64,000 bases of DNA. Source: Phycisphaerae bacterium. Lineage in GTDB: Bacteria; Planctomycetota; Phycisphaerae; UBA1845; Fen-1342. Location of the stretch: positions 192,001 to 256,000 of the forward strand of contig CAXXWX010000006.1 of NCBI GenBank assembly GCA_963675745.2, in the 5' to 3' direction. The translations under genes were made by a program, and so were the position numbers. Numbering within the stretch: position 1 is the stretch's first letter; the number at the start of each line of letters is the position of its first letter. The notes under the pieces were generated by a model. The model saw nothing but the letters and a program-made list of their open reading frames with translations. It was not told the DNA's origin and searched no databases. Shown in pieces: positions 10,909-57,418 of the stretch.

Positions 10909-10947
10909 ATTCGCGCGGGTCAGCCGACGATGCGCTGACACAACCGC

Positions 10948-12133
10948 TTACCACACCCCCGGGATCTTCGTGCCGCACTTCGGGCAGTGGCCGGCTTTCA
11001 TGTTGTTGGCCGCCACGCGGAAGCCGATGCGGCGGATTAGGTCGTGGCCGCAGCCGTGGCAATACGTGTTCTCGCCGGGGTGCATCGGCACGTTCCCCGC
11101 ATATACGTAGCGCACACCGGCGTCCAGCGCGATCTGGCGGCAACGCTCAATCGTCTTGACCGGCGTGCTGGGCAGGTTGGTTACCCGGTAAGTCGGGTGA
11201 AACCGTGTGAAGTGCATCGGTACGTCCGGCCCGAGATGTGCGACGACCCACTCGCTCATTTCCCTGATCTCGGCGGCCGAGTCGTTCAGCGTCGGGATGA
11301 TCAGCACCACCATCTCAAACCAGATGCCGATGTCCTTCAGTGTCTCCAGCGTCGCCAGCACCGGTTTGAGCTCGCCATCGCACGAGTCGGCGTAGAACTT
11401 CTGCGTGAACGCCTTGAAGTCGATCTTCACCGCCGATAAGTGGTGGCAGAGTTGACGCAGCGGGGCTTCCTGGATGTAGCCGTTTGAGATCATCACGCTG
11501 CCAATGCCCGACTCGCGCGCCAGCTTGGCCGTGTCGTGCATGTATTCGTAGAAGATGACCGGTTCGGAGTAGGTATATGCGATCGTCGGACATCCACTGG
11601 ATTGGCAAGCGGCGACCAGGCGAGCGGGGGTTACCGGCGTGCTCTCCACCTGCTCCGGGCGGAACTGGCTGATCCGCCAGTTCTGGCAGAACTTGCACTC
11701 CATGTTGCAGCCCGCCGTCGCTATCGAAAACGCCTTTGTCCCTGGACGGAAGTGAAAGAGCGGTTTCTTCTCGATCGGATCCACGTTCGCCGAGCAGAGC
11801 GCGCCATAGACCAGCGTCTGGTACTCGCCGCGCACATTCTCGCGCACGCCGCAATAGCCGCGCTCGAGTTCCGCGACGTGGCACTCCCGCGGGCACAGCA
11901 CGCACTTGATTTCGTCAGTCGCCGTGTTGTTCCCAGAACATCGCCCGGCGGCGCACGACGCCTTTCAGTAGCGGCCCCGAAAGAGCGCCGGTGCCGGCCG
12001 TATCCTGTGCAAACACGCAGCCGGCACCCAACGCGCATGCACCGCCAGCAAGCCCCCAGCGCAGCAGTTCGCGGCGCGATGGCTGTGAGAAGACGTCGTC
12101 GAGGTTGTCCACGTCAGACCTCGATACGTTCAA
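10948..12133 (-). CDS. amrS: AmmeMemoRadiSam system radical SAM enzyme with Tat-like leader; 1-nt frameshift near 11917
   Basis: CVLCPRECH...GYCGVR, VDPIEKKPLFHF, GCNMECKFCQNW (CxxxCxxC), IAYTYSEP. Upstream ORF 11915..12133 (SRRELLRW...AMFWEQHGD) joins it if one base is removed (ggc gac T gac gaa atc aag tgc). Confidence 0.88.
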
Positions 12134-13118
12134 TCCTCTTCAAGTCACTGACGCCCAGGCCCTGCGCCCCCGCCGTGGCAATGTACGTCGGCGGGCGGCC
12201 GGCATCGGCGAGGGACTCCATGCCCTGTGCGGCGCGGTGTTTTTCGAGGTAGTCGACACCGACAGCATCCAGCGCCACGAAGTCGGTGCTGGTGATCATC
12301 CCGCCGAATCGCCAATCGTAGGCGCGTTTCCTCATCGGCCCGCCTTCGTACTGCCCGAGCGTTCCATCACAGACGGTCAAGCGCCACTTGTCGCGAATGA
12401 ACGGGTGCCTGACGATGTCGGCGATGTATGGATCGCAACGGTTGCCGTGATACTTATTGGGGTTGTGGATCGCGCCGTAGAAGTTCTTCATGCCCAGCGA
12501 GGCCCCGGCAATGCCATGGTCCTTGAGCACGGGGGCCGAAATGAGCGCGTCGATGCGCTCGGCCAGAATTTTCGAGAAACAGGAGCCGATCTTGCCGCTG
12601 GTTTGCACGTCGCGCTGATAGCCTCCGCCCAGCCGGCTGGCGTCGGTTCCGCGACACTGCACGCCCTTGCCTGACTTGTTGAGCTTGAATCCCGCGCGTT
12701 CCAGCTCGGAATCGAAACGGTCCCAGATGACAATGTTCTCCGCGGGGACATCCGCCTGCCGCAAGCCGGCGACGATGGCATCCACGACCGCCGGCTGTGT
12801 TGTGCGGCCGAGGCAATTGACCTTGATACCAATGCGTTCGGTCGGCTTGAAGAGCTTGCGCCACGCGCTGGCGGCATCCGCGGACTTGGTCAGCTTCTGC
12901 ATCGACGCATCCAGCATCTTGCACAGCAGATCCGCGTGCTCGCTTATCTCCCCTTTCAGCAGGGCGTCGTCGCGGGCGATCGCGACCAGCGCGCCCGGCG
13001 CCGCGGCACCCTCCTCCGCCCAGACTTGCTCGAATGGCACCGCGGCCCCGGCGACCACCGCCCCTACTTGTGCGAGAAACTGCCGTCGACTCGTGAGATC
13101 TGGCCCATGCATCAGCAT
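12114..13118 (-). CDS. DUF362 domain protein with Tat signal
   Basis: SRRQFL twin-arginine leader; IGIKVN, PVLKDHG...SLGMKNFYG and DFVALD motifs. Confidence 0.82.
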   Translation of the reverse strand: MLMHGPDLTSRRQFLAQVGAVVAGAAVPFEQVWAEEGAAAPGALVAIARDDALLKGEISEHADLLCKMLDASMQKLTKSADAASAWRKLFKPTERIGIKVNCLGRTTQPAVVDAIVAGLRQADVPAENIVIWDRFDSELERAGFKLNKSGKGVQCRGTDASRLGGGYQRDVQTSGKIGSCFSKILAERIDALISAPVLKDHGIAGASLGMKNFYGAIHNPNKYHGNRCDPYIADIVRHPFIRDKWRLTVCDGTLGQYEGGPMRKRAYDWRFGGMITSTDFVALDAVGVDYLEKHRAAQGMESLADAGRPPTYIATAGAQGLGVSDLKRIERIEV

Positions 13119-13160: not shown

Positions 13161-14690
13161 CTAATCACACCCCGGCTCGCCGAAAACTTCCGCTTCAAAC
13201 GAATATATCTCCGTGTCGCGTTGCTTCCAAGCATCATTTGGCAAACCTGCCTTGCGGCAGGTCTGCGCGAGGAACTCTTCCCGTCGCCAGCCCCGCTCAT
13301 AGGCCACCTGGGGCAGCAAAACGCCGCGCCGTCCGCCGCGCGCTATCAGCAATCCGTGCTGACCAATGATGATGTCCCCCGTGGACTTCATGCGTTGCAT
13401 CGGCGTCAGGTAGCTGATTTCAATGTCCAGATCGTCAAGCTCGCCGGCCGTGACCGGATTGTGTACAAAGCGGCGATCGCGACACGCCGCCACCGCGTTG
13501 CTGATTACAGCCTCGTACAGCGGCCCCGTGGCCAGCATGTTGCCGATACACCCCCGCAGCTCGCCGTGGTTTTGCAGCGTCACAAAACACGCGCCGTCGC
13601 CGCGCAGCTTGGCGGGCAAGTCGGCGGCGCTCGCCGCGGGCACTTCCTGGCTTTGCAGATAGGCCTTCACCGTGGCACGGGCCATCTTCAGCAACCTGTC
13701 GCGCTCGTCGGCCGCCAGCGTGCCTTGCCGCGGCGTGAAAACGAACGACTGGTAGGTGACGCTGTTGGTCCAATCACCGGTGATCTGGCCGGATGTGTCA
13801 AAAGCCGCGCGCGTTGCCCGGGCACCGCCGCGCATCGACAGCACACGCAGCAGGAGTCGTACGGCACCGCGCCCGCAAATTGTATCGCTTGTCTTGTCGA
13901 GGTGGGCGGCGAAACCGTCGTAGTCGCAGCGCTCAATCGCTGTGGCGGCTTTGTCCGCCAGGTCGCGCAGGCGCGTCGGCACATCCTCGCTGAATGGCTG
14001 GTAACCGTAGTTAGGCCCGAAGTGAGTGAAGTCAGTGCTGGCGACCAGCAGCGTCTCGTCATCAATCAGCGGGAGCAGGGCGTGTGCCGCTCGCGCGCAG
14101 TCATCGTCAGACATCCGCCCGACCAGGAGCGGCACCAGCGAGAAACTGCCCAGCGCGCGCTGCAGGAAGGGCAATTGCAGTTCGAGCGAGTGTTCGCGCG
14201 CGCCGACGCCGGTGTGTGCGCCGTATAGCTCCGAAGTCCGCAGCGCCGCAAATGCTTCGCGGTCGAGGGCAACGTCTCCCAGCGGCGTCGCATAGGCGGA
14301 CAAGTCGTCCGGCACATCCACGCCCTTGTACGAGCCCGCGTAACGATGATCCAACGCCAGCACGATCACGCGCTTGTAGGTGTGCCCACGCAGAGCGGCG
14401 TAGGCCGCCGCCGCCACCGGTGCGCTGAACCGGTAGCCCGCGTGCGGGCTGATCAGCGCGACGGGTTTGCCTGTTGTTTTGGGGGGGCCGTGCTTATCGA
14501 GCAGGCCGTCAATCTGCTTCGTGAGCTCAGCCGGGTCAGCCGGGTACCAGGTCCCGGCAAAACCTGCCGGTCGGACCTTCGCCTCATCTTTGGCACAGGC
14601 GTGCCCGATCGAGGCAACACCTGCGGCCGCCAGCAGAACAAAGACAGCGCTAATTCGTGCCGCGGGCATGGGATACGCCTCCATCACCAT
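13161..14690 (-). CDS. amrB: AmmeMemoRadiSam protein B (Memo-like) fused to protein A (AMMECR1), with signal peptide
   Basis: Memo domain: VRPAGFAGTWYP, ISPHAGYRFS, EHSLELQLPFL, ASTDFTHFG, TICG. AMMECR1 domain: GACFVTL...LRGCIG...GVLLPQVA. Hydrophobic N-terminal leader. Confidence 0.92.
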   Translation of the reverse strand: MVMEAYPMPAARISAVFVLLAAAGVASIGHACAKDEAKVRPAGFAGTWYPADPAELTKQIDGLLDKHGPPKTTGKPVALISPHAGYRFSAPVAAAAYAALRGHTYKRVIVLALDHRYAGSYKGVDVPDDLSAYATPLGDVALDREAFAALRTSELYGAHTGVGAREHSLELQLPFLQRALGSFSLVPLLVGRMSDDDCARAAHALLPLIDDETLLVASTDFTHFGPNYGYQPFSEDVPTRLRDLADKAATAIERCDYDGFAAHLDKTSDTICGRGAVRLLLRVLSMRGGARATRAAFDTSGQITGDWTNSVTYQSFVFTPRQGTLAADERDRLLKMARATVKAYLQSQEVPAASAADLPAKLRGDGACFVTLQNHGELRGCIGNMLATGPLYEAVISNAVAACRDRRFVHNPVTAGELDDLDIEISYLTPMQRMKSTGDIIIGQHGLLIARGGRRGVLLPQVAYERGWRREEFLAQTCRKAGLPNDAWKQRDTEIYSFEAEVFGEPGCD

Positions 14691-17592: not shown

Positions 17593-17629
17593 GTGATATC
17601 CAGGAGTGATTCACCACACGGGAGACACC

Positions 17630-20242
17630 ATGTACCGACCATTTGTTTTGGCTGTTCTGCTGACCACCGTGTTCGCCGGAAGCCACCCCACCGCGATCGC
17701 CGCCGGCCATCGTGACTGGACAGTTGTCCCGTTGGGTTCGTTCCAGTTGGACCAGGATGAGCAGGATATCGTGATTCGCCGTCCATACGATCGTTTCGGC
17801 GTAATTCAAACGCCGATCGCGTTGCTGGCCGTGCCGGACCGGGCACAGATTGCATCGGGCGAACCGATGAAGATCACGATGTCGATCGGGGAGACAACCT
17901 TTCCTGAGTGGAACATCGACTCGCCGGGGCAGATCTACGTCATCGGTGTCGAAGTCCAACAACGGCATGCCACCCAAGCAAACGCCGCCCTGACAATGCA
18001 CGTGCGTGTTGAAGGTGCGGCGGCGCCGGTACAGTTGATCGCCAGCGCCCCACCAGACCTTTGTCTGGCCGGCGCCCACTGGGTTGGACCGCTGGCCGCG
18101 CGTGTGGAGCAGTTGGAACGCGGGTTGCCTCGCGAGTACCTGACCGCGGCCCTGGCGAGCAACGTTGTGCCACTGGATCAGGCGCGGGCGGAGTTTGCCC
18201 GCCTGTCCGAATCCGCCGATCCGCGGATCGCCAGATATGCCCGCGAGAAACTCCGGCGGATCGACTTCGTCATCGCGGAGCGCAGTGCATCCGAGGATTT
18301 CGCCGGCCACTATCGCCTCGGCCTCTACGCACAGCAGTGCGGGCTTTACCGACACGCCCTGACGCACTTCGCCATGGCGACGTCGTTCGACGGTGCAAGT
18401 GCGTTTGAACGCAGCGACGCTCTGTACCGGCTGGCGGAGGCGATGATGCGCTGTGGGGAGCCCATCAGCCGCGTGGCCGACGTGGCGGAGCAGGCCGGCA
18501 TCGCGGCGGCCGTCAAAGCCAACACCTGGGATGTCTGCCTGGCCGTCCTGATGGCCGAGCACACCGACGAGGTCAGTGAAGACGGGGCCGCGACAGAACC
18601 GAAGCGCATGCGCCCAGATCAGATCGAGACGTTGAAGCGCGACTGGGGGATTGTGGAGAAGATGGTTTTCGGTGCTTCCGGCGGCTACTTGCGCCTCAAG
18701 ACGCGAGTCATCCAGGTACCCAGCAACCAGCGCGTTGCTTACGACGTCTTCGGCGGTTGGTTACCGGGGCCGGCCGACGGGTTTCTCAGCCAGCGTGGCG
18801 ATGTTGACGTTGTCATGTCGTTTCGGCCCGGAGGGGCTTCGGTGACAGGCGGCGCCGATTGTGGCCCCGACGGTTCCGCAATGGTGGACATTGGCCCGGA
18901 ACGCGGATGGGAGGTCTTTCTTCACGAGTGGAACCACTCGTTCGACTGGGCACGCATCACCGGGGAGACTTGCGCAGGCTATCCAATCACACACCATTCA
19001 GATGGTTGCGGATACCAGCCCATTCCGTCCATGGGCTATGGACATCTTTCCAGTATGCGCTACTGGGCCCCACCGGGCATGTACCAACGCACCGAGCTGG
19101 CGGATACCGACCCCGGCACGGGTTATGTCCGCAACTGGTGGCTGGGCCAGCCGCACGCCATTGACGATGATCCCCCCGCCCAGGGCACGCCAACCGCACG
19201 ACACGCGCGTGAATTCGGCCCGGATCGCTTCAGTGAAGCCGACAGAGACTACAGCGGATTCGACGGCAACTTCATCGACCTGCTTCCCCATCTAACCGAG
19301 ACTTTGGGCGCCGAGCGCCCCGTCTGGTGTGTCACGCAGGCGACCACGCATGTCTGGTCTCCCGAGCGGCGCGCCGTACGCCTGTGGCTTGGTCACAATG
19401 ATGGCATGGCGGTCTGGGTCAATAACGAGCTGGTGCATCGGGGGGATTACTACGCCATCGCGAAGTTTGAGGACCAGAACTGGCCCAACATGGCGTGTAC
19501 GGGGGCCCTGCTGCTGCAAGGTTGGAACCGGATTGACGTGGCGGTCGAATCATGGCCGGCGCCGTTCGACAAAGGCTATGGGTTCTCGGTTCGCATCTGT
19601 GATTACGACAACCATGAGATTCCGGATCTGAAGATCGCCACGGCGGGCAGTGACGCACCGACGACAATTGCTCCCGACGCGCTCGCCCCGCGTTTCGGGA
19701 GGTTCTACAAGTGGGATCAGGTGCGCGACGACTACTACTGGAAACTCCCGCGCATTACCGCCGAGGACTTGCGCGATCATTGCGGGCTGGCTGACGGCGC
19801 CACGCTTTCCGTCGTGAGCAACATCGGCCCCACCAAGGGCTTTCTGGCCATTGGAGCATCGTCGGACAAGAGCGATGGCACGCTGCTACCGATCCCCGAC
19901 GATTGGGACCGCGAGCGCGATCGTGACGAGCGGGTCAACAACATCATGGACTACAACCGCGAGGCGATCGCGGTCTACCCGTTCGAGATGCGCGGGCAAA
20001 CTCGGCATCTGCTGATCATGCGGCCGGAAGCGGTCGGCCCATATCTCAAATGTCTCAACGAAGCCCCCGACGCAGCACGCGTGTACGCGGATAAGCCGGT
20101 GAGCGATCGCATTGTCGGGTATCTGCTGACCGGCCGGAACATCGGTGAGCAGGAGGGTGTCCGCGCCTGGGTTGTGGCGGAGGCGATGCTGCCCGCGCCG
20201 CTGCCGCTTGATGAGGAAGATCTGCTGGCGCCGCTGCCATAG
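17630..20242 (+). CDS. Large secreted multidomain protein with TPR-like helices and an HEXXH zinc motif
   Basis: GGAG RBS; signal peptide; HYRLGLYAQQCG...ALYRLAEA helices; FLHEWNHSF; LWLGHNDGMAVWVN beta-sandwich segment. Confidence 0.7.
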   Translation: MYRPFVLAVLLTTVFAGSHPTAIAAGHRDWTVVPLGSFQLDQDEQDIVIRRPYDRFGVIQTPIALLAVPDRAQIASGEPMKITMSIGETTFPEWNIDSPGQIYVIGVEVQQRHATQANAALTMHVRVEGAAAPVQLIASAPPDLCLAGAHWVGPLAARVEQLERGLPREYLTAALASNVVPLDQARAEFARLSESADPRIARYAREKLRRIDFVIAERSASEDFAGHYRLGLYAQQCGLYRHALTHFAMATSFDGASAFERSDALYRLAEAMMRCGEPISRVADVAEQAGIAAAVKANTWDVCLAVLMAEHTDEVSEDGAATEPKRMRPDQIETLKRDWGIVEKMVFGASGGYLRLKTRVIQVPSNQRVAYDVFGGWLPGPADGFLSQRGDVDVVMSFRPGGASVTGGADCGPDGSAMVDIGPERGWEVFLHEWNHSFDWARITGETCAGYPITHHSDGCGYQPIPSMGYGHLSSMRYWAPPGMYQRTELADTDPGTGYVRNWWLGQPHAIDDDPPAQGTPTARHAREFGPDRFSEADRDYSGFDGNFIDLLPHLTETLGAERPVWCVTQATTHVWSPERRAVRLWLGHNDGMAVWVNNELVHRGDYYAIAKFEDQNWPNMACTGALLLQGWNRIDVAVESWPAPFDKGYGFSVRICDYDNHEIPDLKIATAGSDAPTTIAPDALAPRFGRFYKWDQVRDDYYWKLPRITAEDLRDHCGLADGATLSVVSNIGPTKGFLAIGASSDKSDGTLLPIPDDWDRERDRDERVNNIMDYNREAIAVYPFEMRGQTRHLLIMRPEAVGPYLKCLNEAPDAARVYADKPVSDRIVGYLLTGRNIGEQEGVRAWVVAEAMLPAPLPLDEEDLLAPLP

Positions 20243-46840: not shown

Positions 46841-48428
46841 CCCGGATTATTCACGGTTGAGTTGAAAGAGCGGCCTTCGTGTGGTCTAACTGGTTTTGAC
46901 CAAACAAGTTGGACCGAGCACGGAGGCCGCCGATGTTTGAACAGACTGAAGCTCAGTTGTTCTTCTCGTTTTTCGCCGATCGCAAGCTGATTGTCCAGCG
47001 TCACGCCGGACAAATTTCCTCGGACGCCGGGCTGTTGCCGATTCGGCAGTTGGACCAGCGGCTGCGTTTTACCGCGCGGCTGGTCGCCGGCCTGAGCGAT
47101 GACCGTCACGAACCGCGGCACACGCAACTCGAGATGCTGCGGCAGCGGCTCTACGGGGTGCTGGCCGACTATGAGGACTGCAATGATCACGACACGCTTC
47201 GCGACGATCCGATCTTCAAGATTGTTGCGGATCGGTTGCCCGAAGACGATCCGCTCGCCAGCCAGCCCACGCTATCGCGTTTCGAGAACGCCGTCACGAT
47301 CGACACGCTGTGGCAAACGCTCGACTTCCTGGTCGCGACCGGGATCGAGCGGCTGCGGGAGAAGAACGAGGGCCAAATGCCCGATCGCCTCACGCTCGAT
47401 CTCGACGCCACCGACGATCCGGCGCACGGGCAGCAGCAATTGGCGTTGTTCCACGGCTACTACGAGCAACACCAATACTTCCCGATCGTGATCAGCGAGC
47501 CGACCACGCAGCACGTGTTCTACGCCGCCCTGCGGCCGGGCAGTGTGCACGCCGCTCACGGTGCCGACGATGACCTGGAATTCGTGGTCGAGCGTCTGCA
47601 CGCCGCCCGCGGCGACCTTGCGATTCACGTTCGCGGCGACAGCGGCTTCGGCGTGCCATCGATGTACAAAATCTGCGAGAAAAACCGACTGACGTACACG
47701 TTCGGCATCGGCGCCAACAAACGGCTGCAGGCCCTGGCCCAGCCGTTACTCGACCGAGCCGTCGCCGAATACGAACGCACCGGCGAGAAGCAACGCCTGT
47801 TCATGCACTTCAACTACCAGGCCGGCTCGTGGGATCGGCCACGCGCCGTGATCGCCAAGGCCGAGTGCCAGGCGGCCGGCACGAACCTGCGTTTCGTGGT
47901 CACCAATCTACAGGTGAACTCCGACGCCGACGCGCAGCGTGTTTACGACGACTACATCCAGCGTGGTGCCAGCGAACAACGCTTCGATGAACTCAAGAAC
48001 GGTCTGCACGCCGACCGGCTGAGTTGTCATCGCTTCGTGGCCAACTTCTGGCGTCTGCTGCTGCACACGGCGGCGTTCAACCTGTTGAACTGGTTGCGTG
48101 ATGACGAGCAGGTGCCGGAGACGTTGCGTACCGCCCAGCCGGCCACGTGGCGGAGTCGCGTGATCAAAGTGGCGGCAACGGTCATCCAGTCGGCTCGGCG
48201 GGTGGTCGTGGCGATTGCTGGCCAGTGGCCACACTGGTCGACTCTTCACACCGTCGCCGTCCGCAGTGGTGCCATCCCCGCAGGCCCGTAACCCCGCCGA
48301 CAACGTGTTTGCTCGTGGGGGTAAGGGGGAATTGCGCGCGTCCTGCATCCGAGAACGTCATCAGCCCCTTGCAAAACCGCGACGAACAACAAAAACCCGA
48401 ACGGCACCCTACCCGTGAATAATCCGGG
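46841..48428 (+). mobile_element. IS1380-family insertion sequence (1588 bp)
   Basis: Perfect 16-bp IRs cccggattattcacgg (46841-56) and ccgtgaataatccggg (48413-28); TTAG direct repeat at 46837-40 and 48429-32. Confidence 0.93.
46933..48291 (+). CDS. IS1380-family DDE transposase
   Basis: GQISSDAGLL, YEDCNDHDTLRDDP, LASQPTLSRFEN, LDLDATDDPAHGQQ, VRGDSGF and QRGASEQRFDELK motifs. Confidence 0.94.
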   Translation: MFEQTEAQLFFSFFADRKLIVQRHAGQISSDAGLLPIRQLDQRLRFTARLVAGLSDDRHEPRHTQLEMLRQRLYGVLADYEDCNDHDTLRDDPIFKIVADRLPEDDPLASQPTLSRFENAVTIDTLWQTLDFLVATGIERLREKNEGQMPDRLTLDLDATDDPAHGQQQLALFHGYYEQHQYFPIVISEPTTQHVFYAALRPGSVHAAHGADDDLEFVVERLHAARGDLAIHVRGDSGFGVPSMYKICEKNRLTYTFGIGANKRLQALAQPLLDRAVAEYERTGEKQRLFMHFNYQAGSWDRPRAVIAKAECQAAGTNLRFVVTNLQVNSDADAQRVYDDYIQRGASEQRFDELKNGLHADRLSCHRFVANFWRLLLHTAAFNLLNWLRDDEQVPETLRTAQPATWRSRVIKVAATVIQSARRVVVAIAGQWPHWSTLHTVAVRSGAIPAGP

Positions 48429-48533
48429 TTAGGCTGGCATCGATTGGCCGATCCAGTTCCCCGCATGGGCTGTTGCCCGCTACCAAGCGGGCACGTACTG
48501 ACAGGCATGTCTCACTTTAGGAGGTACGAAGGG

Positions 48534-49151
48534 ATGAAATATCTAATTGTCTTGTTTGCCATCTGTGCCGTGCCGCTGGCGACGGCGGACTATCTGGACG
48601 AGGATCTGAACTCGACAAACGCAAACGTTTCATTTTCGGGCAATACCGGGTTTGCCGTCGACGACCAACTGGGCGTCGAAGTCGTCGAACGCTTCGGCGA
48701 TTTTGCCGGCTGGGTATGGCCTGCCATGACGATCACGTTCCCGGATACCGTCATTGAGGCGGGCGCCTCGCTCGATCTCCACGGACGTTATCACCAGGAA
48801 GAGTACACCTGGGACCACGACGCCGACCCGAACACGCCGGACTACACGCGCTATCCATACAGCGACGCGAATGTCTGGTTGATCCTGAAGGGTCCCGGCG
48901 GCGACATCGATCTGGCCTGGGCCGACAACGACGGCTGGAAGCACATCGGCGACGTGTGGCGGAATGTGATCATGGATCTCAGCGCCCACGCTGGCGCAAC
49001 CGTCAACGGTCTCGAGATTCGCAGCACCAACTGGCAGGCGCCGCTTCCCAACAACGACTTCTATCACTTCTCGAATGTCACGATTACCCCCGAGCCGACC
49101 ACGCTGGGTCTGTTCGGTCTCGGCCTGCTCGGCCTGTTGCGCCGCAGGTAG
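48534..49151 (+). CDS. PEP-CTERM sorting domain protein
   Basis: Signal peptide MKYLIVLFAICAVPLATA; C-terminal TPEPTTLGLFGLGLLGLLRRR. Confidence 0.9.
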   Translation: MKYLIVLFAICAVPLATADYLDEDLNSTNANVSFSGNTGFAVDDQLGVEVVERFGDFAGWVWPAMTITFPDTVIEAGASLDLHGRYHQEEYTWDHDADPNTPDYTRYPYSDANVWLILKGPGGDIDLAWADNDGWKHIGDVWRNVIMDLSAHAGATVNGLEIRSTNWQAPLPNNDFYHFSNVTITPEPTTLGLFGLGLLGLLRRR

Positions 49152-49271: not shown

Positions 49272-51818
49272 TCAATTGTGCTTGCGCCCTGCTGACAGGA
49301 TGATTGTTGAGGCGAGCTTGATTGCGGCGAGGAGGCAGGCCGTGGTCGTGATGCCGAAGACCGGTATCAGCAGGATTCCGCAGGTCAGCGCGCCCAGGCA
49401 GGCTCCGGCGTGGTCCGGGCCGACGATGCGCGCAGCTACGACGGCGGGATGCTGGTCCATGTTTCGCCGCAGGTGCCCCGCCAGCGCGAACGCGGCGCCG
49501 CCGAGCACGCCGGTTAGTAGCACCATGATTGAGATGCAGACCTCAACGAGCGCGAAACCGGGCGAGTCGGCATTGAATGCGCCGAGCGCCATCAGCAGTG
49601 GCGACGCCGTGAGGGCGAGGAGCGTTAGAAGCAGGTCGACCACGACTAGCGCATGCCATGATGAGGACCGGCGGGCAGGTGGTTCGGTGGTTGGTTCGGC
49701 GGGCTGGGGTGGGAGATTGTGGGTTTGCTCTACTTCCACGGCCGGCGAGGCGCCGGCCGCTACGTTTTGTGGCGCGGCGCCGCCTGCTGCATTCGGTGGC
49801 GACATGTCGGCTGGCACATTTCGTCGTCGGCCGGCCAGCGCGCAACCTATAACCAGGCCGGCCATGAACAGTGCGATTATCCAGCCGATGCGCTGATAGA
49901 CATAGCCGTACAGACTCTGAAAGGCGAAAAGCCAGACCATGCTGAGGGCCATGGTCACAAAGCCGGTGGTGCCCACGGAAAGCGTGACCGCTCCGGCCGC
50001 CCATCCGTCACCCGCTCCGCGTCGCAGGCGCGTCAGCAGTAGCGTTGCGCCGCCGAGAAGAGCCAGTGCAACGGCGACGTGCCACAGGTGGATTGAGCGC
50101 AGGGCCGCAATCGGGCCGGCTGCACTGCGTCCCGGACCGCTGCCCCCACGGGTGATCGATTCCCACAGCACCAGTCGTTGCAGGTAGATCGCCGGGTGCA
50201 GGTCGGTACTGATTTGCACAAGGTCGGCGCGATCAAGATCAGCTCGGCGGCCAGCAATCTTGGATTCATCGAGCCAATCGGTGCCGCCCTCAAACCACAG
50301 CGGGTCAAACAACTCCGCCGCGACATGACGCCGAGTGTAGCGCGCTGCCAGCTCCGCCGGATCGGTGCTGAGCAGTTCCCGATCGGTTGCGGCGAGAATC
50401 TGGGCCGGGTTGCCCCACCCGATCAGGATCTCGCGGAAATGTCGGGCCAGTGTAGCGCGCAGTCCGGCCAGGTAGTCCCGCGCCGCGGGTGAGAGCGCGC
50501 CCTCAGACGCCGTCGCATTTGTGCAAAACACGGCCCGGGCGGTCATGGCATTGCGCAACTCGGCGAAGAACTCGTCCGTGTAGAATCGCGCGCGCTGTGC
50601 CGACATCGGCTCGGGCAAGCGCGCGATGACGAGGTCGAATTGGGCGCGTTGCGTCTTGATGAAATGGCGCGCGTCGTCGTGGTGTACCGTGACGCGCGCA
50701 TCGACGAGCGCCTGCCGGTCGCGGTCGGAAACATAGGGTCGCACCAGCTCGATGAAACGCGGGTCCAGCTCAACGTAGTCCACGCGCTCAACCGGGTGCA
50801 GCAGAACCTCCGCCAACAGCCCCTCGACGCCTCCGCCGAGAATGAGCACGCGGCGTGGCAGGGGATGCTGACACATCCAGAAGTGCGCGCGGGGGGCGAA
50901 TGTAAATGGATCGGGGAAGTCAGCGGCCACTTGCCCGTCACAATAAAGCGTGTATTGCCCGGCCCGGTGCCCGATGGCCAGATTTTGATAGCGAGACTCG
51001 GCCTCGGCCACCAGCCTGTAGCCGGGGGCGAGCGTTTGCCAGCGGCGTTGCACCAGACGGTGGTCGAGCCGATCGCCGGCCAGCAGCGCCACGCCGGCGG
51101 CGCCGACCGCCAGGCCAATCAAGGCCCAACTCGGTGGCGATGCGTACCACGCGCGGCCCGGCGCGCGGCGTAATAGTACGGCGCACGACGCGGCCGTGAT
51201 CGCTCCGCAGAGCAGGGCAATCTGAATCGGGCGCAAAGACTCGACCGCCCAGAAGCTGAAGGCCGCGCCGCCAATCAGGCTGCCGACACATTCCAGGGCG
51301 TAAACACGCGCAAACGAGAGCAGCGGTGTGCGCGGGGCACCGGGCGCTGCGCTGATCCCCCCCGTGTTGCACGCCAGTGGAAACGCCATGCCGACCAGCA
51401 TGCTGGTCGGCGAAACCAGGAGCATGGCCGCGAGTGCCGTGGTCGGCAACGATAGCAACTCGCCGGCCTCAACGCCGAGCCACGCGCGGGCGCCCCGAAA
51501 GGCCCAGAGCTCGACACACGCGGCGGCACTCAGGGCCAGCAGTACGATCGCCAGGCAGGTTCCCGGCGCGCGCGTGCCGGCGCCTGTTCTGGCGATGCCC
51601 TCACCGATGTACGCACCGACCGCCACGCCCAGCAGCCAGGCGAACAGCACGATCCCCCAGGCGAGTTCGCTTCCGAACATCAGCACCAGGGCCTCGCGCA
51701 GCAATAGCGACTGGGTGACGATCGCCTGCGCCCCCCAGGCCACGACGACCACACTCAGTCCGAACCGGGAGGCGCGCTCGGATCGAAGGGCTGCTGGCGT
51801 TGGCAGGTGCGCGCACAT
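49272..51818 (-). CDS. Multi-TM membrane protein with spermidine-synthase-like SAM-binding domain
   Basis: AAGGAG RBS before ATG at 51818; Q.LLLRE...GSEL; ESRYQNL; RVLILGGG...VELDP...DDAR.FI...FDLVI; flanking TM blocks. Confidence 0.8.
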   Translation of the reverse strand: MCAHLPTPAALRSERASRFGLSVVVVAWGAQAIVTQSLLLREALVLMFGSELAWGIVLFAWLLGVAVGAYIGEGIARTGAGTRAPGTCLAIVLLALSAAACVELWAFRGARAWLGVEAGELLSLPTTALAAMLLVSPTSMLVGMAFPLACNTGGISAAPGAPRTPLLSFARVYALECVGSLIGGAAFSFWAVESLRPIQIALLCGAITAASCAVLLRRAPGRAWYASPPSWALIGLAVGAAGVALLAGDRLDHRLVQRRWQTLAPGYRLVAEAESRYQNLAIGHRAGQYTLYCDGQVAADFPDPFTFAPRAHFWMCQHPLPRRVLILGGGVEGLLAEVLLHPVERVDYVELDPRFIELVRPYVSDRDRQALVDARVTVHHDDARHFIKTQRAQFDLVIARLPEPMSAQRARFYTDEFFAELRNAMTARAVFCTNATASEGALSPAARDYLAGLRATLARHFREILIGWGNPAQILAATDRELLSTDPAELAARYTRRHVAAELFDPLWFEGGTDWLDESKIAGRRADLDRADLVQISTDLHPAIYLQRLVLWESITRGGSGPGRSAAGPIAALRSIHLWHVAVALALLGGATLLLTRLRRGAGDGWAAGAVTLSVGTTGFVTMALSMVWLFAFQSLYGYVYQRIGWIIALFMAGLVIGCALAGRRRNVPADMSPPNAAGGAAPQNVAAGASPAVEVEQTHNLPPQPAEPTTEPPARRSSSWHALVVVDLLLTLLALTASPLLMALGAFNADSPGFALVEVCISIMVLLTGVLGGAAFALAGHLRRNMDQHPAVVAARIVGPDHAGACLGALTCGILLIPVFGITTTACLLAAIKLASTIILSAGRKHN

Positions 51819-51931
51819 CCTGGTGCTCCTTCGTCCCGCGCGACAGATTGCGGGCTGCCGGCGTGGCGCGGTCGGGGCCACATTCTGCCGCGGGGCGTGT
51901 ATAGTATGACGAGCAACGGGAGTCGTGCGCC

Positions 51932-52582
51932 ATGCCACGTCTGTTTGCCAAGCAATACATGCGGCCGGTGACGGCGATCAGCCGTACTGAAAAGGCGGTA
52001 GGCGCCGGCATTCTGCTGCTGACGGCGACGATTGTGGCCGCGTTCTTCATCCACGTCGCGACCCGACGAGAAAGCCCGCTGAGCGCTGACCCGGAGATCT
52101 ACGGCACCGGGGCCGAAGTTGACCAGACACCGGGATCCCCGCCGGCAGCAACAGCCGAACCGTCCGGCGGTTTCCCGGAATCAGGTCTGACCGATTGGCA
52201 ACGACCGTCGCGGCTCGAGCGCTATGCACCCGATGAGCTGTACGTAAAGATCAACGGTCAGGCGGACGCGTATATCGAGAGTGGCTGTGTGGGATTGACG
52301 TTCGGAAGCTACAGCTCCCGGGCGAATGCCGAGGATGCCATCGACGTTTATTGGTACGACATGGGCACTGCGGCGAACGCGTCGGCGGTATACGAAGACG
52401 AGAAGCCGCCGAACGTCGCCGCGATCGAGCTGGGAGGCGCGGCGTACCAGGTTGGCAGCGCGGTGTTTTTCTGGCAAGGCTCGGGCTATGTGCAGGTAAT
52501 GCCGACCAGCTTTGACGATTCGCAGGCCGGCGCGGCCCTGGCGATTGCCCGCCGCCTGGCCGATTCTCTCCCCGGTGAATAG
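51932..52582 (+). CDS. Membrane-anchored periplasmic protein, DUF6599-like
   Basis: One N-terminal TM; Y.PDELYVKINGQADAYI...IDVYWYDMG...FWQGSGYV pattern. Confidence 0.6.
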   Translation: MPRLFAKQYMRPVTAISRTEKAVGAGILLLTATIVAAFFIHVATRRESPLSADPEIYGTGAEVDQTPGSPPAATAEPSGGFPESGLTDWQRPSRLERYAPDELYVKINGQADAYIESGCVGLTFGSYSSRANAEDAIDVYWYDMGTAANASAVYEDEKPPNVAAIELGGAAYQVGSAVFFWQGSGYVQVMPTSFDDSQAGAALAIARRLADSLPGE

Positions 52583-52624
52583 CAACGTATCACGTGGCGC
52601 GACTGAGCGCGCCAGGCACAGGTC

Positions 52625-53710
52625 ATGACGGATAGGCGACTGACACGCAGGGAATATCTCAAACGTGGCGCCGGCGCGGTTTTAACCGCGGGGGTGGCCG
52701 CGGCGGGCGGGTATTTGCTGTGGGATCCCACCGGCGATGCGGGGCGCGCCGGCGCGGCCCAATCCACACCGCTCTGGCAACCGACGAACTACTTCGCTGA
52801 TATTGAATTGCCGCCGTCAGCTCCGCGGATCAGCGTCGCAGTTGGTGATGGGCAGCAGATTGACCGGCTGGTTCGTGCGGCGCTTGAGGCATTGGATCCC
52901 GGGGCCGGGCTGGGTCGATTCATCAAAGCCGGCGACGTCGTGCTGCTGAAGCCGAACGTCGGCTTTGACCGGCCGTCGCAGTTGGGCGCCACAACGCATC
53001 CTGAGGTCGTGCGGTCGATGATTCGCTTGTGTCTGGAGGCCGGCGCGCGAGACGTACTGATCACGGATAACCCGATCGAGACGCCGCAGGCCTGTTTCTC
53101 GCGCAGCGGAATCGCGCGTGTCGCCGATGAGGAGGGGGCGCGCGTGGTGCTGCCGACGGCGCAGCGATTCGAGACGCTGGTGCTGCGCGATCGTCCGGTT
53201 GACCGAGCGCGTGGAGAGGCGCTGGAACGCTGGCCCATCCTGCACGCTCCCCTCTCAGCCGCGACGAAGGTCATCGGCATCGCGCCGATCAAAGACCACA
53301 ATCTGTGCAGCGCATCGATGAACCTGAAGAACTGGTATGGCCTGCTTGGCGGGCGCCGAAACCAGTTCCACCAGGTGATTCATGAGATCATCAGCGACCT
53401 GGGCCTGATGATCAGCCCGACGCTGGTCGTTGCCGACGCAACGCGCGTGATGATGCGCAACGGTCCGACGGGAGGACGGATCACCGACGTCCAACCGGGC
53501 GGGCAACTGGGCCGGCCGGCGATCATCGCGTCGGCTGACCCGGTGGCCTGCGACGCGTGGTGCTACGAAAACCTGTTGGGGCGTGATCCCGCCGGGTTGC
53601 GCTACCTCGATCTGGCCGGCGACAAAATCGCGGCGCACCGATCGCCGCCGGACAGCAACGGCTCGGCGAGCGTGATTGGCGCGTATACGATCGCGCCGGG
53701 CTCGTTGTAA
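52625..53710 (+). CDS. DUF362 domain protein with Tat signal (possible C-terminal frameshift)
   Basis: TRREYL leader; VLLKPNVGFDR...TTHPEVV, PIKDHN...SMNLKNWYG, RNGPTGG and DPVACD motifs. Confidence 0.82.
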   Translation: MTDRRLTRREYLKRGAGAVLTAGVAAAGGYLLWDPTGDAGRAGAAQSTPLWQPTNYFADIELPPSAPRISVAVGDGQQIDRLVRAALEALDPGAGLGRFIKAGDVVLLKPNVGFDRPSQLGATTHPEVVRSMIRLCLEAGARDVLITDNPIETPQACFSRSGIARVADEEGARVVLPTAQRFETLVLRDRPVDRARGEALERWPILHAPLSAATKVIGIAPIKDHNLCSASMNLKNWYGLLGGRRNQFHQVIHEIISDLGLMISPTLVVADATRVMMRNGPTGGRITDVQPGGQLGRPAIIASADPVACDAWCYENLLGRDPAGLRYLDLAGDKIAAHRSPPDSNGSASVIGAYTIAPGSL

Positions 53711-53807
53711 CGACACGTGTGTAGAGGCCGACTCCCGAGCCGGCCGTGGCACTCAGGTGAACCCTCGTCGGGCGTGGAGGCCCGACGCCCCAGCGGAAGA
53801 GGCACTG

Positions 53808-55421
53808 ATGGCCGAGCCGGTTGAACGAGTGCGCCCCACGCGGTTCCGTGACTCGTGGCTGAACTGGACGCGTATCACGGTCGTGCGCGTGATCGTGCAG
53901 ACGGTCATGTTCGCGCTGTTCAGCGCATTCGTGCTCCTGACGACATTTGCCAGCCTCGATCGCTGGCCGGCTCTGCACTGGTGGGTCAGCAAAGTGCTCG
54001 AGGTCGACCCGCTCATCGCGTTGGCGACCGCGCTCACAACGCACACCGTCTACAAGGGGTTGTTGTGGTCGTTGGTGATCCTGATCCCGACCCTCTTCCT
54101 CGGACGCTTCTTCTGCAACTGGATCTGCCCGTTCGGGGCACTGCACCAGTTCGTCCGCTGGGTGTTCTGGAACGGCAGTGCCCGCGAGATCATCGCAGGC
54201 AACAGCTACCGCCCCATACATGCGGTCAAGTATTACGTGCTGACCGGCCTGCTGCTGGCCGCGGCGGCCGGCAGCCTGCAGATCGGCCTGTTGGACCCGA
54301 TTTGCCTGCTGTATCGTTCGATCACCGGCGTGGCCCTGCCCACGCTGGGGATGGCCGCGCCGGCGCTGGCGGGTGAGACGCGCTTGTATCAGGGGGCGTG
54401 GTTAATCGGCTTGCTCCTGGTTGGCCTGCTGGCCGCCAATCTGGTCATGCCACGTTTCTTCTGCCGCGTGTTGTGCCCGCTGGGAGCGCTGTTGGGCGTG
54501 TTGAGCAGGTTTGCCTGGTGGCGTATCGAGCGCGACCCGTCCGTCTGTCACCAATGCGACCGTTGCCGGCTGCACTGCGAAGCCGCGTGCGACCCGCACG
54601 CCAAGCTGCGCAAGGCCGAGTGCTTCGTATGTCTGAATTGCATCGAGGATTGCCCCGAGGGCGCGCTGGCCCTGCGCTTCGCATTCATGCCACCGAAAGA
54701 GCACGAGGTGACCGGGCCGGATGTGTCGCGCCGCAAGCTGCTGCTCGCGGGCATGGCGGGGCTGCTGTTTTTCCCGTTCGCGCGGAGTTCGGGAAAAAGC
54801 ACGCGTAACTTCTCCAGCTCGGTCGTACGGCCGCCCGGGGCCGTCGAAGAAATCGAGTTTCTCGAACGCTGCATCAAGTGCGACCAGTGTGCGCGTATCT
54901 GTCCGACAAACGTCATTCAACCCGACTGGTTCGACAGCGGAATCGAAGGACTCTGGACACCAGTTCTTAACTTCCGCATGGGATTCTGCCAGTTGCACTG
55001 CACGGCGTGCGGGCAGGTGTGCCCGACCGGCGCGCTGCAGCAGATTCCCGTTGCGCAAAAACTCGGGCTCGGCGAATTCTCAGAGCAAGGCCCGATCCGG
55101 CTGGGCACGGCGCACGTGGATCCGTCCCGTTGCCTGCCGCACGCTAATAACATCCCATGCGTGGTCTGCGAGGAAGTCTGCCCCACGAGCCCCAAGGCCA
55201 TCTACGGCGAGCGCGTTACGCGCGTGGCCCGGGACGGCACAATGCTGGAGCTGACCGTCCCGCGCGTCGATGTCGATCGCTGTATCGGTTGCGGAATCTG
55301 TGAGCATGAATGTCCGGTAGTCGGCGACCGCCGCGCTATATACGTGACGGCGGAGGGTGAGACGCGTTCGCAATCTCAGCCGCAGCGCGATCGCAACCGC
55401 TCGGTGCGTGCCGTGCCCTGA
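53808..55421 (+). CDS. Membrane 4Fe-4S protein: NapH/MauN-like domain fused to NapG/MauM-like polyferredoxin
   Basis: GRFFCNWICPFG, RFFCRVLCPLG, several CxxCxxCxxxC motifs, internal SRRKLL, VRPPGAVEE. Confidence 0.87.
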   Translation: MAEPVERVRPTRFRDSWLNWTRITVVRVIVQTVMFALFSAFVLLTTFASLDRWPALHWWVSKVLEVDPLIALATALTTHTVYKGLLWSLVILIPTLFLGRFFCNWICPFGALHQFVRWVFWNGSAREIIAGNSYRPIHAVKYYVLTGLLLAAAAGSLQIGLLDPICLLYRSITGVALPTLGMAAPALAGETRLYQGAWLIGLLLVGLLAANLVMPRFFCRVLCPLGALLGVLSRFAWWRIERDPSVCHQCDRCRLHCEAACDPHAKLRKAECFVCLNCIEDCPEGALALRFAFMPPKEHEVTGPDVSRRKLLLAGMAGLLFFPFARSSGKSTRNFSSSVVRPPGAVEEIEFLERCIKCDQCARICPTNVIQPDWFDSGIEGLWTPVLNFRMGFCQLHCTACGQVCPTGALQQIPVAQKLGLGEFSEQGPIRLGTAHVDPSRCLPHANNIPCVVCEEVCPTSPKAIYGERVTRVARDGTMLELTVPRVDVDRCIGCGICEHECPVVGDRRAIYVTAEGETRSQSQPQRDRNRSVRAVP

Positions 55422-55494: not shown

Positions 55495-56283
55495 ATGGAG
55501 ACGATCTCAGCCAACTGGTACGACTACCCGCATCTCTACGACATCGCCTTCTCGTGGGACGCGTCGCTCGAGATTGACTTTCTGGTCTCGATGTTTGAGC
55601 AATATGCGCACGGGCCGGTTGAACGCGTCTTTGAGCCGTTCTGCGGCACCGGGCGTCTGGCGATCCCGCTGGCGCGGCGCGGTTATCGCGTTTGTGGTAT
55701 GGATATCAACTCCAGCGCGATCGCGTTCGCGGAGCAGCGTTGCGCGACAGAGCGCGCCGAGGTTGACCTGAGCGTTGGCGACGTTGCCGCCTGGACCACG
55801 CGGGAACCTGTCGATGCGGTGGTAACGCTAATCGACAGTTTCCGCCACCTGACCAGCGCCGAGCAGGCGCGGGCGGCGCTGCGCGCGTTTCATGTCGGCC
55901 TGCGGCCCGGTGGCGTATTGGTCATCGGGTTGCAGCTCGGCGATACGCCGATCGAGGCTGATGACAGCAACCACTGGGAAATGGAACGAGATGGTACCGT
56001 CGTAGAGACGATCGTGGCCGGCTTGCGCAAGGCGGGCCGGACACCCGGAACGACAGTGGTGCGCTCCGTGTTGCGAGTCACCGAGGCCGGCGGCCGTCAA
56101 TATGACATAATCACCGACGACGAAATGCGCGAGTACACGCTGGCTTCACTAAAGCAACTGGCGCACCAGTGCGGGCCGTTTGAGTTTCAGGCCGGCTACA
56201 GTTTCGAGGATCTCGGATCGAATCAGATCCTGGACTCGGATGACCCGCAAGGCAACACGGTCGCGGTGTTTGTGCGCCGTTGA
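55495..56283 (+). CDS. Class I SAM-dependent methyltransferase
   Basis: YDYPHLYD, VFEPFCGTGR, GMDIN and LRPGGVLV motifs. Confidence 0.88.
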   Translation: METISANWYDYPHLYDIAFSWDASLEIDFLVSMFEQYAHGPVERVFEPFCGTGRLAIPLARRGYRVCGMDINSSAIAFAEQRCATERAEVDLSVGDVAAWTTREPVDAVVTLIDSFRHLTSAEQARAALRAFHVGLRPGGVLVIGLQLGDTPIEADDSNHWEMERDGTVVETIVAGLRKAGRTPGTTVVRSVLRVTEAGGRQYDIITDDEMREYTLASLKQLAHQCGPFEFQAGYSFEDLGSNQILDSDDPQGNTVAVFVRR

Positions 56284-56299
56284 CGAGATACCGAGCATT

Positions 56300-57418
56300 A
56301 TGAGAATCCTGGCGCTCGAACCATACTACGGCGGCAGCCATCGCGCGTTTCTCGACGACTGGCGCGCGCACAGCGCCCACGACTGGACATTGCTCGGACT
56401 GCCTCCGCGGAAATGGAAGTGGCGCATGCGTCACGCGGCCGTTACGTTTGCCGACCAGGTGAGTGCGCTGGTGGCCGAGGGGGCGCGCTGGGATGCCGTC
56501 TTCTGCTCGGACATGCTGAATCTGGCCGAATGGCGCGGCCTGGCGCCCCAGGCCGTGGGCGCGTTGCCGTCGATTGTCTACTTCCACGAGAATCAACTGA
56601 CCTATCCGTTCCGCTTCATGGGTGAGCGCGACCTGCACTTCGGGTTCATCAACATGACCACCGCTCTCGCCGCTGAGCGGGTGTGGTTCAACTCGGCGTT
56701 TCATCGCGACGATTTTCTGGGGGCCTTGCAGCGCGGTCTGCGCAAGATGCCGGACTATCGTCTGGATGATGTTGTCGAGCGTATCCGCGCCAAGTCAGCG
56801 GTTGAGCCGCTCGGCGTTCGCGACATCACGCCGGCCGCCGGCCGTGTTGATGGACCCTTGCGCATTCTGTGGGCGGCGCGGTGGGAGCACGACAAAGACC
56901 CTGACACGTTCTTCGCGGCCATCGACGGTCTGGTTGAACGGGGCGTGGATTTTCGCCTGAACGTGATCGGTGAGCGCTATGCCGAGGTGCCCGACGCGTT
57001 CCCCGCCGCTCGCGCACGTTTCTCCCAGCATATCGACCGCTGGGGCTACCAGCCGGATCGGGCAACGTATGAAGCGGCGCTGCGCGAGGCCGATGTAGTG
57101 GTCTCGACGGCACAGCACGAGTTTTTCGGCGTCAGCGTGATCGAAGCGATCGCGGCGGGTGCGTTTCCGCTATTACCGCGGCGACTTGCCTATCCGGAAA
57201 TCCTCAGTGCCGACGTCAGCGCGGAACCAGACGCTTTCTTCTACGACGGAAGCGCCTTGGCTCTCACCGAGCGGCTGGCCGTTCTCGCCGGTGCGCTTGC
57301 CGCCGGCGACCTGTGGGGCGGCGACCCGTTGCGGGCCAGGCGGGCGGCCGAACGTTTCTTCTGGCGAAAGCGCGGCCCCGACCTCGACGCGGCGCTATGT
57401 CGCGCCACGGGCAACTGA
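56300..57418 (+). CDS. DUF3524/GTDC1 (QTMAN)-like GT-B glycosyltransferase
   Basis: [56 protein letters not shown] and LAYPE motifs. Confidence 0.85.

Follow-up and report, generated by a model that had tools for sequence, protein, structure and literature searches.

Two gene modules of a Phycisphaerae bacterium as candidate parts of an outward-facing AmmeMemoRadiSam system

Radical S-adenosylmethionine (SAM) enzymes are regarded as cytoplasmic, since they need both SAM and a strong reductant, and we know of no demonstration of such chemistry on the outer face of the membrane. How, then, might an exported enzyme of this kind be supplied? The question is raised by a 64,000-nucleotide stretch of a Phycisphaerae bacterium (the window; positions 192,001 to 256,000 of contig CAXXWX010000006.1, or C6, in a genome of 5.2 Mb, 28 contigs and 91% completeness), which carries an AmmeMemoRadiSam operon with predicted export signals and a second, divergent cluster of four genes. 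A preliminary description, made from the sequence alone, had taken the cluster for a probable partner of the operon. The best explanation found here is that both loci, though apart, are halves of a single envelope redox system made of two modules. Module A consists of the radical SAM enzyme AmrS, an AmrB-AmrA fusion (AmrBA), the DUF362 protein DUF362a and a SAM-fold protein with 14 transmembrane (TM) helices; module B consists of a DUF6599 protein, a second DUF362 protein (DUF362b) and a polyferredoxin. The genes concerned are as follows (ORF, open reading frame; Tat, twin-arginine translocation).

10948..12112, minus strand: amrS, AmmeMemoRadiSam radical SAM enzyme, Tat leader (TIGR04337)
12114..13118, minus strand: DUF362a, Tat leader (PF04015, TIGR01409)
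13161..14690, minus strand: AmrB (Memo)-AmrA (AMMECR1) fusion, Sec-type signal peptide (TIGR04336, TIGR04335)
49272..51818, minus strand: 14-TM SAM-fold membrane protein (PF01564; longest ORF 49272-51938)
51932..52582, plus strand: DUF6599 protein, short form (PF20244)
52625..53724, plus strand: DUF362b, Tat leader (PF04015; assembled ORF 52625-53710)
53808..55421, plus strand: NapH-NapG polytopic polyferredoxin, NapH-like N-half and NapG-like C-half (longest ORF 53676-55421)
46909..48291, plus strand: IS1380-type transposase, outside the system (PF13701, E 3.5e-123)

Adjacency and co-occurrence of the two modules

The four cluster genes proved to be what had been read in them, namely a multi-TM spermidine-synthase-like protein, a TM-anchored protein, a Tat DUF362 protein and a NapH+NapG fusion, with matches to PF01564, DUF6599 and PF04015. 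Three sets of loci were fetched: 80 for the best among 557 relatives of the polyferredoxin, 80 for the best among at least 591 relatives of AmrS, and those for all 35 relatives of the SAM-fold protein. Adjacency to exported Amr genes, on which the preliminary description had made its case depend, was found in several lineages. Six distinct Phycisphaerae contigs have all seven genes in one unbroken run, and two further loci are cut by contig ends; amrBA-DUF362a-amrS comes first, next the SAM-fold gene, which faces amrS, and last DUF6599-DUF362b-polyferredoxin. A Zixibacteria chromosome keeps six of the seven together in a different order, and in 12 Aminicenantes-type loci the DUF6599 gene is divergent from DUF362a-amrS-SAM-fold gene. 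The idea of one split partner system is thus upheld by the contiguity of seven genes in relatives, but not in the sense of a single dedicated four-gene locus, module B being widespread.

In the window the two halves lie 35 kb apart. A single inversion from about 10.9 to 49.2 kb would give back the order of the relatives and could explain the split, and the IS1380 transposase, 1 kb from the right breakpoint so placed, may have had a part in the rearrangement. The transposase gene and a gene for a PEP-CTERM protein (48444-49151, plus strand) lie directly past the 3' end of the SAM-fold gene; in relatives this is the place of amrS.

The members of the system differ in how closely they follow amrS. 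Around the 80 amrS loci, DUF362a was present in 66, the SAM-fold gene in 45, AmrBA in 41, DUF6599 in 17 and the polyferredoxin in 5. Among the 62 amrS loci with at least 4 kb of downstream sequence, the SAM-fold gene lies beside amrS in 37. Seen from the SAM-fold gene (35 loci), amrS is a neighbour in 13 and DUF6599 in 8, and amrS is adjacent in all five distant loci that were reached through a remote homologue. The polyferredoxin (80 loci) is accompanied by DUF362b in 75, DUF6599 in 56, an aldo-keto reductase (AKR) in 44 and amrS in 4. Two side observations belong here: in five loci (L092, L093, L094, L098 and L102) the SAM-fold gene is directly preceded, on its upstream side, by an O-methyltransferase gene (PF00891), and the AKRs, the usual neighbours of module B (L073:6441-7673 and 43 other loci), bear Tat leaders in the two that were examined. 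A tblastn search of the host genome gave no AKR of this neighbouring kind.

Co-occurrence in whole genomes extends these counts. In 46 genomes with an exported AmrS, picked from 57 more distant amrS loci, a polyferredoxin match was found in 43, across many phyla; among the 30 best loci, 28 have a DUF362 gene next to the polyferredoxin. In the reverse direction, 48 module-B genomes were chosen among the 80 polyferredoxin loci because they showed no amr neighbours, and AmrS at 51% identity or more was present in seven. Dependence is therefore one-way, of module A on module B. In a sample of 90 genomes of the host's class, exported-type AmrS (61-69% identity) is confined to eight genomes, which are also the ones with the SAM-fold gene; the two lie within 2.3 kb of each other in seven, and the polyferredoxin is present, elsewhere in the genome, in seven of these eight versus 16 of the 50 with lower-identity amrS alone (whose leaders were unchecked). 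DUF362b adjoins the polyferredoxin in five of six loci fetched from the exported-type genomes. Of the four cluster genes, the one for the SAM-fold protein alone tracks exported AmrS in both directions. That all four are specific to Amr systems was considered and rejected, module B being widespread without exported AmrS and mostly AKR-adjacent.

Several of these results weigh against joining the modules. Module B stands beside amrS in just 5 of the 80 loci fetched with AmrS and in 4 of the 80 fetched with the polyferredoxin; 41 of the 48 module-B genomes are without exported-type AmrS; the eight class genomes form one family and are not independent, and in one (G084) no polyferredoxin was matched; and anaerobes in general often have polyferredoxins. 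The two modules might then be independent envelope systems, B a nickel-pincer dehydrogenase that has an electron wire to itself and A drawing electrons elsewhere, their clustering due to shared anaerobic, Tat-rich lineages or to membership of one pathway without direct electron hand-over. The AKR in place of amrS at most module-B loci (44 of 80; with long flanks, 31 of 46 versus 4 with amrS) agrees with such independence, as does an unlinked DUF362b-polyferredoxin pair of family f13, about 30% identical to that of the window. The DUF362 tree (a quick one of 62 rows with midpoint root) has bearing on both sides. It separates a-type from b-type proteins and nests the window's DUF362b among AKR-adjacent copies, which favours independence; the Zixibacteria copy, however, falls in another supported clade, and adjacency to amr genes therefore arose at least twice. 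Retention of the polyferredoxin in most exported-AmrS genomes of many phyla, and the 12 loci in which DUF6599 alone accompanies module A, also argue for a connection, and we consider independence unlikely.

Exported Amr proteins and the SAM-fold protein

The Amr proteins of the window are firmly assigned, AmrS scoring 369 bits against a cut-off of 220 (TIGR04337), AmrA 170 against 99 (TIGR04335) and AmrB 198 against 26 (TIGR04336); the weaker family matches of AmrS are glycyl-radical activases. A twin-arginine leader is present on 77 of 80 AmrS proteins, the other three being cut by contig ends, and the N-termini of AmrBA are hydrophobic and Sec-signal-like in most of the relatives shown. TatC is present in the host genome. 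AmrS, DUF362a and AmrBA are accordingly predicted, from their N-termini, to be exported. In the assembly, a frameshift near position 11918 puts the Tat leader and the enzyme body of amrS in different frames. Short-read contigs of two runs of one sample each have one base fewer at this point, so amrS is intact and the frameshift (one extra base) is an assembly error; the same contigs rule out a pseudogene or a leaderless gene. The adjacent gcvPB (9447-10940, plus strand) is also frameshifted in the assembly, near 10673, and the short-read contigs have one base fewer there and near 10910. As both genes have one-base excesses, the assembly must contain scattered one-base insertions.

Other forms of amrS were also met with. 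A second amrS at L120:5503-6708, 43% identical, has a twin-arginine leader as well, and exported AmrS is therefore not confined to the high-identity clade. The host genome has, in addition, an amrS without a leader on contig C19; amrA- and amrB-like genes go with it, scattered over C19 and C3.

The SAM-fold protein likely starts at ATG 51818, 7 nt past GAAGGAG, which gives 848 amino acids. It matches PF01564 (E 1.9e-23), and its best NCBIfam match, PRK03612, reaches 176 bits against a cut-off of 472. Alignment-averaged hydropathy gave 14 helices in the arrangement 6+1, SAM-fold domain, 1+6, and TM1-6 are homologous to TM9-14 (HHalign 96.7%, E 4e-10). Lysine and arginine counts alternate as for an inside N-terminus and an outside SAM domain, with one ambiguous loop. 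The topology prediction that had been proposed as a check thus points to an outward-facing SAM-fold domain. A promoter scan of the divergent gap between the SAM-fold and DUF6599 genes found no sigma-70 site.

Could this be an ordinary membrane aminopropyltransferase making surface polyamines? The top solved-structure matches of the domain are all spermidine synthases, and a glutamate stands one position past the lost D104 in 51 of 79 rows, both of which would suit such an enzyme. Neither catalytic aspartate is kept, however: relative to human SRM (2O05), D104 is replaced by V331 and D173, of the DxxD gate, by R400, and across the family aspartate occupies the D104 column in 0 of 72 rows (glutamate in 2) and the D173 column in 5. 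The residues that hold the nucleoside in SRM (Q49, E124, D155) are retained, with D382 in 72 of 72 rows and E350 in 59. This loss and retention suggest that the protein binds SAM-like molecules outside and make polyamine synthesis unlikely. A fungal seven-TM enzyme with the same loss, the N-terminal histidine methyltransferase (NHMT), acts on secreted proteins and is a proven methyltransferase, according to PMC10349129. A companion idea, that the twin-arginine leaders go unused and the Amr enzymes are cytoplasmic, is hard to reconcile with their retention across phyla in 77 of 80 AmrS proteins, along with Sec signals on AmrBA. We hold an aminopropyltransferase or unused leaders to be very improbable. 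Within the Amr module the SAM-fold protein probably handles SAM or acts as a methyltransferase, its role lying presumably in transport or methyl transfer. An earlier suggestion had it handling SAM or its by-products; the outward domain and the lost aminopropyltransferase residues fit this, and transport of SAM itself would be one form that such handling might take.

Polyferredoxin, DUF6599 protein and DUF362b

With its likely start at ATG 53808, the polyferredoxin has four Sec-type TM helices, an internal twin-arginine before TM5, and three inner and four outer [4Fe-4S] motifs. The arginine pair before the fifth TM helix is kept in 78 of 79 aligned rows. The NapG and NapH profiles both remain below their cut-offs (90 against 269 bits and 65 against 234 bits). 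No NapA-like nitrate reductase was found in the 91% complete genome, which gave one weak partial PF00384 match, in agreement with the absence already noted in the window, and a role of the polyferredoxin in nitrate respiration was rejected for want of such a gene. A search of the genome for methylamine dehydrogenase gave no match, but the control queries gave none either.

The DUF6599 protein (PF20244, 90 bits, above cut-off) has one N-terminal TM helix and a predicted outward domain with no conserved cysteine or histidine. It covers profile positions 3-130 of 186; since several relatives' copies have the same coverage, it is a natural short form, and truncation by error was rejected. An Atlas search matched DUF6599 clusters alone. 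The protein is probably a scaffold or chaperone of the exported DUF362 proteins.

DUF362b (PF04015, E 4e-39; leader TRREYL) was correctly recognized as a second Tat DUF362 protein, and its motif KDHNLCSASMNLKNWYG is indeed common with KDHGIAGASLGMKNFYG of DUF362a (12114-13118); what had been missed is its likeness to LarA. The final 25 or so residues of the assembled ORF look frameshifted, and the other frame ends at 53724 with the LG...W tail of the family, so that an assembly frameshift near 53630 is probable. PDB sequence searches gave no match. The structure model (pLDDT 95) matches residues ~33-270 of LarA, the N-terminal cofactor domain, with Z 15.9-17.6 and a root-mean-square deviation of 2.9-3.3 Å over 207-217 residues, the next best Z being 6.0. 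The invariant residues are K109, H225, K235 and H249. In weak profile alignments (E 0.056 and 0.0036), a histidine and the lysine 10 residues on align to LarA H174 and K184, whose roles are given in PMC11770544, and an invariant histidine lies 13-14 residues past the lysine versus 16 in LarA. On this model, DUF362b is a candidate nickel-pincer hydride-transfer enzyme.

Genes for making the pincer cofactor follow module B. The host genome has larB, larC and larE, and a profile search of it found no PF09861 (Lar_N) match and no LarA. larC is present in 47 of the 48 module-B genomes and, in the class sample, in 23 of 24 genomes with a polyferredoxin versus 26 of 66 without; related genomes not being independent, no weight is given to a Fisher test of larC against the polyferredoxin. 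In three Verrucomicrobia loci the lar genes adjoin module B. One operon (L261:5386-12113, genome G033) reads AKR(Fe-S)-larB-larE-larC-Tat DUF362-polyferredoxin beside a CbiM/Q/O-type transporter, and G033 is the sole larC carrier among 12 sampled genomes of its family; this within-family contrast is weakened by G113, whose polyferredoxin has no DUF362 neighbour. A pincer cofactor is likely in the DUF362b clade of the window. It is not universal, because genomes without lar genes keep the DUF362 motif. Four further DUF362 genes of the host lie on contigs C19, C15, C26 and C23, at least two with RR leaders.

DUF362a forms a separate deep clade, and no other gene adjoins amrS as often (66 of 80 loci), which might suggest that module A exists to mature it: AmrS, AmrA/AmrB and the membrane methyltransferase would build or install a DUF362a cofactor or side-chain change, possibly a nickel-free alternative to the pincer. 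The weaker matches of AmrS to glycyl-radical activases and the two lar-less chromosomes with a full DUF362 motif would suit this. Low-identity amrS genes are found without DUF362a, however, and larC is present in 36 of the 46 exported-AmrS genomes. Tat substrates, moreover, normally acquire their cofactor before export, which would make an exported maturase odd. Such a maturation system appears improbable.

Three further genes of the window were noted. Beyond the polyferredoxin lie a class I methyltransferase gene (55495-56283) and, downstream of it, a bacterial homologue of tRNA-queuosine alpha-mannosyltransferase (56180-57418, plus strand; QTMAN_N PF12038, E 2e-61, plus a GT4 domain); no QTMAN-like gene was seen next to the cluster in any fetched relative locus. 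The product of the gene at 17606-20242 (plus strand), 878 amino acids long, has an N-terminus like that of a signal peptide, contains a zincin-like motif (HEWNH) and matches no Pfam family.

Proposed mechanism and relation to known systems

The scheme towards which we lean, with modest confidence, is an outward-facing system in which polyferredoxin and DUF362b supply electrons, the 14-TM protein handles SAM, and exported AmrS, AmrA, AmrB and DUF362a modify an envelope molecule. It builds on what was observed, namely the genes, their export motifs, their conserved adjacency, the one-way dependence of A on B, the LarA fold of DUF362b and the lost spermidine-synthase residues; the mechanism itself, with electron delivery to AmrS and transport of SAM, is our inference. 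The polyferredoxin would carry electrons over the membrane to its four outer clusters. DUF362b, probably loaded with the nickel-pincer nucleotide before Tat export, would perform hydride transfer on a small substrate and exchange electrons with these clusters, and AmrS would draw one electron per turnover from the outer domain of the polyferredoxin. The 14-TM protein could pass SAM out, take S-adenosylhomocysteine or 5'-deoxyadenosine back, or both, via its duplicated six-helix bundles, its outer domain acting as a binding cap and perhaps also as a methylating unit. AmrS, AmrA, AmrB and DUF362a would then modify an envelope or periplasmic molecule rather than an RNA base. Module B would be a general service unit, which other genomes pair with an exported AKR.

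This scheme also has chemical and structural difficulties. A radical SAM cluster requires a stronger reductant than quinol, and the electron transfer to AmrS therefore needs a source of lower potential. The TM domain of the SAM-fold protein did not align to a protein of the major facilitator superfamily (MFS; one sequence). The sequence-profile likeness of DUF362 to LarA is weak, as its E values indicate, larC is missing in 10 of the 46 exported-AmrS genomes, and two single-contig chromosomes without larB, larE and larC, in which controls were positive, keep the His/Lys/His motif of DUF362.

A more far-reaching version is speculative and, in our judgement, somewhat doubtful. It places radical SAM and nickel-pincer-type enzymes in one pathway outside the membrane, served by an Fe-S wire and by a protein dedicated to SAM export, in which a disarmed spermidine synthase forms the outer domain; DUF362 would link the hydride chemistry of the pincer with one-electron transfer in Fe-S clusters and so drive radical generation.

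In many phyla the cluster offers candidates for the supply of SAM and reductant outside the membrane. Three orphan families (DUF362, DUF6599 and membrane-fused SpdS-like proteins) receive roles that can be tested, and the dual Sec/Tat polyferredoxin receives a partner. AMMECR1 and Memo, which also occur in humans as homologues and whose function has long been open, could be approached here in soluble, secreted form. The nickel-pincer enzymes would gain DUF362 as one more class, and the genomes without lar genes allow a sharp test of its cofactor.

Among known systems, spermidine synthase differs from the SAM-fold protein of the window, which is without the acidic residue of GxG(D/E)G (the one that selects decarboxylated SAM) and the catalytic aspartate. 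Fungal NHMT has seven TM helices followed by a spermidine-synthase-like domain that also lacks this acidic residue (PMC10349129); the likeness is one of architecture and motif loss, and the window's protein has seven extra TM helices that repeat the first bundle. Its two homologous six-helix bundles recall the MFS. There was no Pfam MFS match and HHalign against the one MFS sequence gave none, while an Atlas search returned, at rank 28, a cluster with MFS_1 on 16% of members.

The polyferredoxin resembles PFD (Q1NSB0) of the delta proteobacterium MLMS-1, for which Tat-dependent export of the C-terminus has been shown (PMC5449189): both are NapH-NapG fusions with RR directly before TM5 and three inner and four outer cluster motifs, a likeness of architecture. 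The available text of PMC5449189 addresses insertion and names no partner or function.

DUF362b shares the N-domain fold of LarA (5HUQ, 9EIA, 7S91), and DUF362 and DUF2088 both belong to clan CL0471. Unlike LarA, it has no C-terminal domain, has K-P-N where LarA has D-x-T-R, bears a Tat leader and has an electron wire as its partner. The pairing suggests that it carries out a net oxidation or reduction and not a racemisation. Enzymes other than LarA that are encoded beside larB/C/E are known to use the pincer cofactor for intermolecular hydride transfer, as in NphT (PMC13524815); these are pincer AKRs, and AKRs are the usual neighbours of module B, a likeness of class. The main text and 12 of the 17 supplementary files of PMC13524815 make no mention of DUF362 or export.

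The closest relation is with the AmmeMemoRadiSam system, whose gene neighbourhood is noted in PMC2034487. We found no published account of an exported form, and Burroughs et al. 2019 on Memo-AMMECR1 (cited in PMC7159879) may cover such forms. RNA base modification is the published guess for AMMECR1 systems (PMC2034487, PMC4075521), and it assumes cytoplasmic, leaderless enzymes, whereas the Amr proteins of the window have Tat leaders and Sec-type signals; the predicted periplasmic location makes this guess ill-fitting for the exported form. AmrS, AmrA and AmrB of the window exceed their NCBIfam cut-offs and are encoded in one operon, as in the known system. They differ from it in that all parts bear export signals, A and B are fused, and the operon is linked with DUF362a, the 14-TM SAM-fold protein and the polyferredoxin module. 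The exported form is thus a variant of the known but uncharacterised AmmeMemoRadiSam system.

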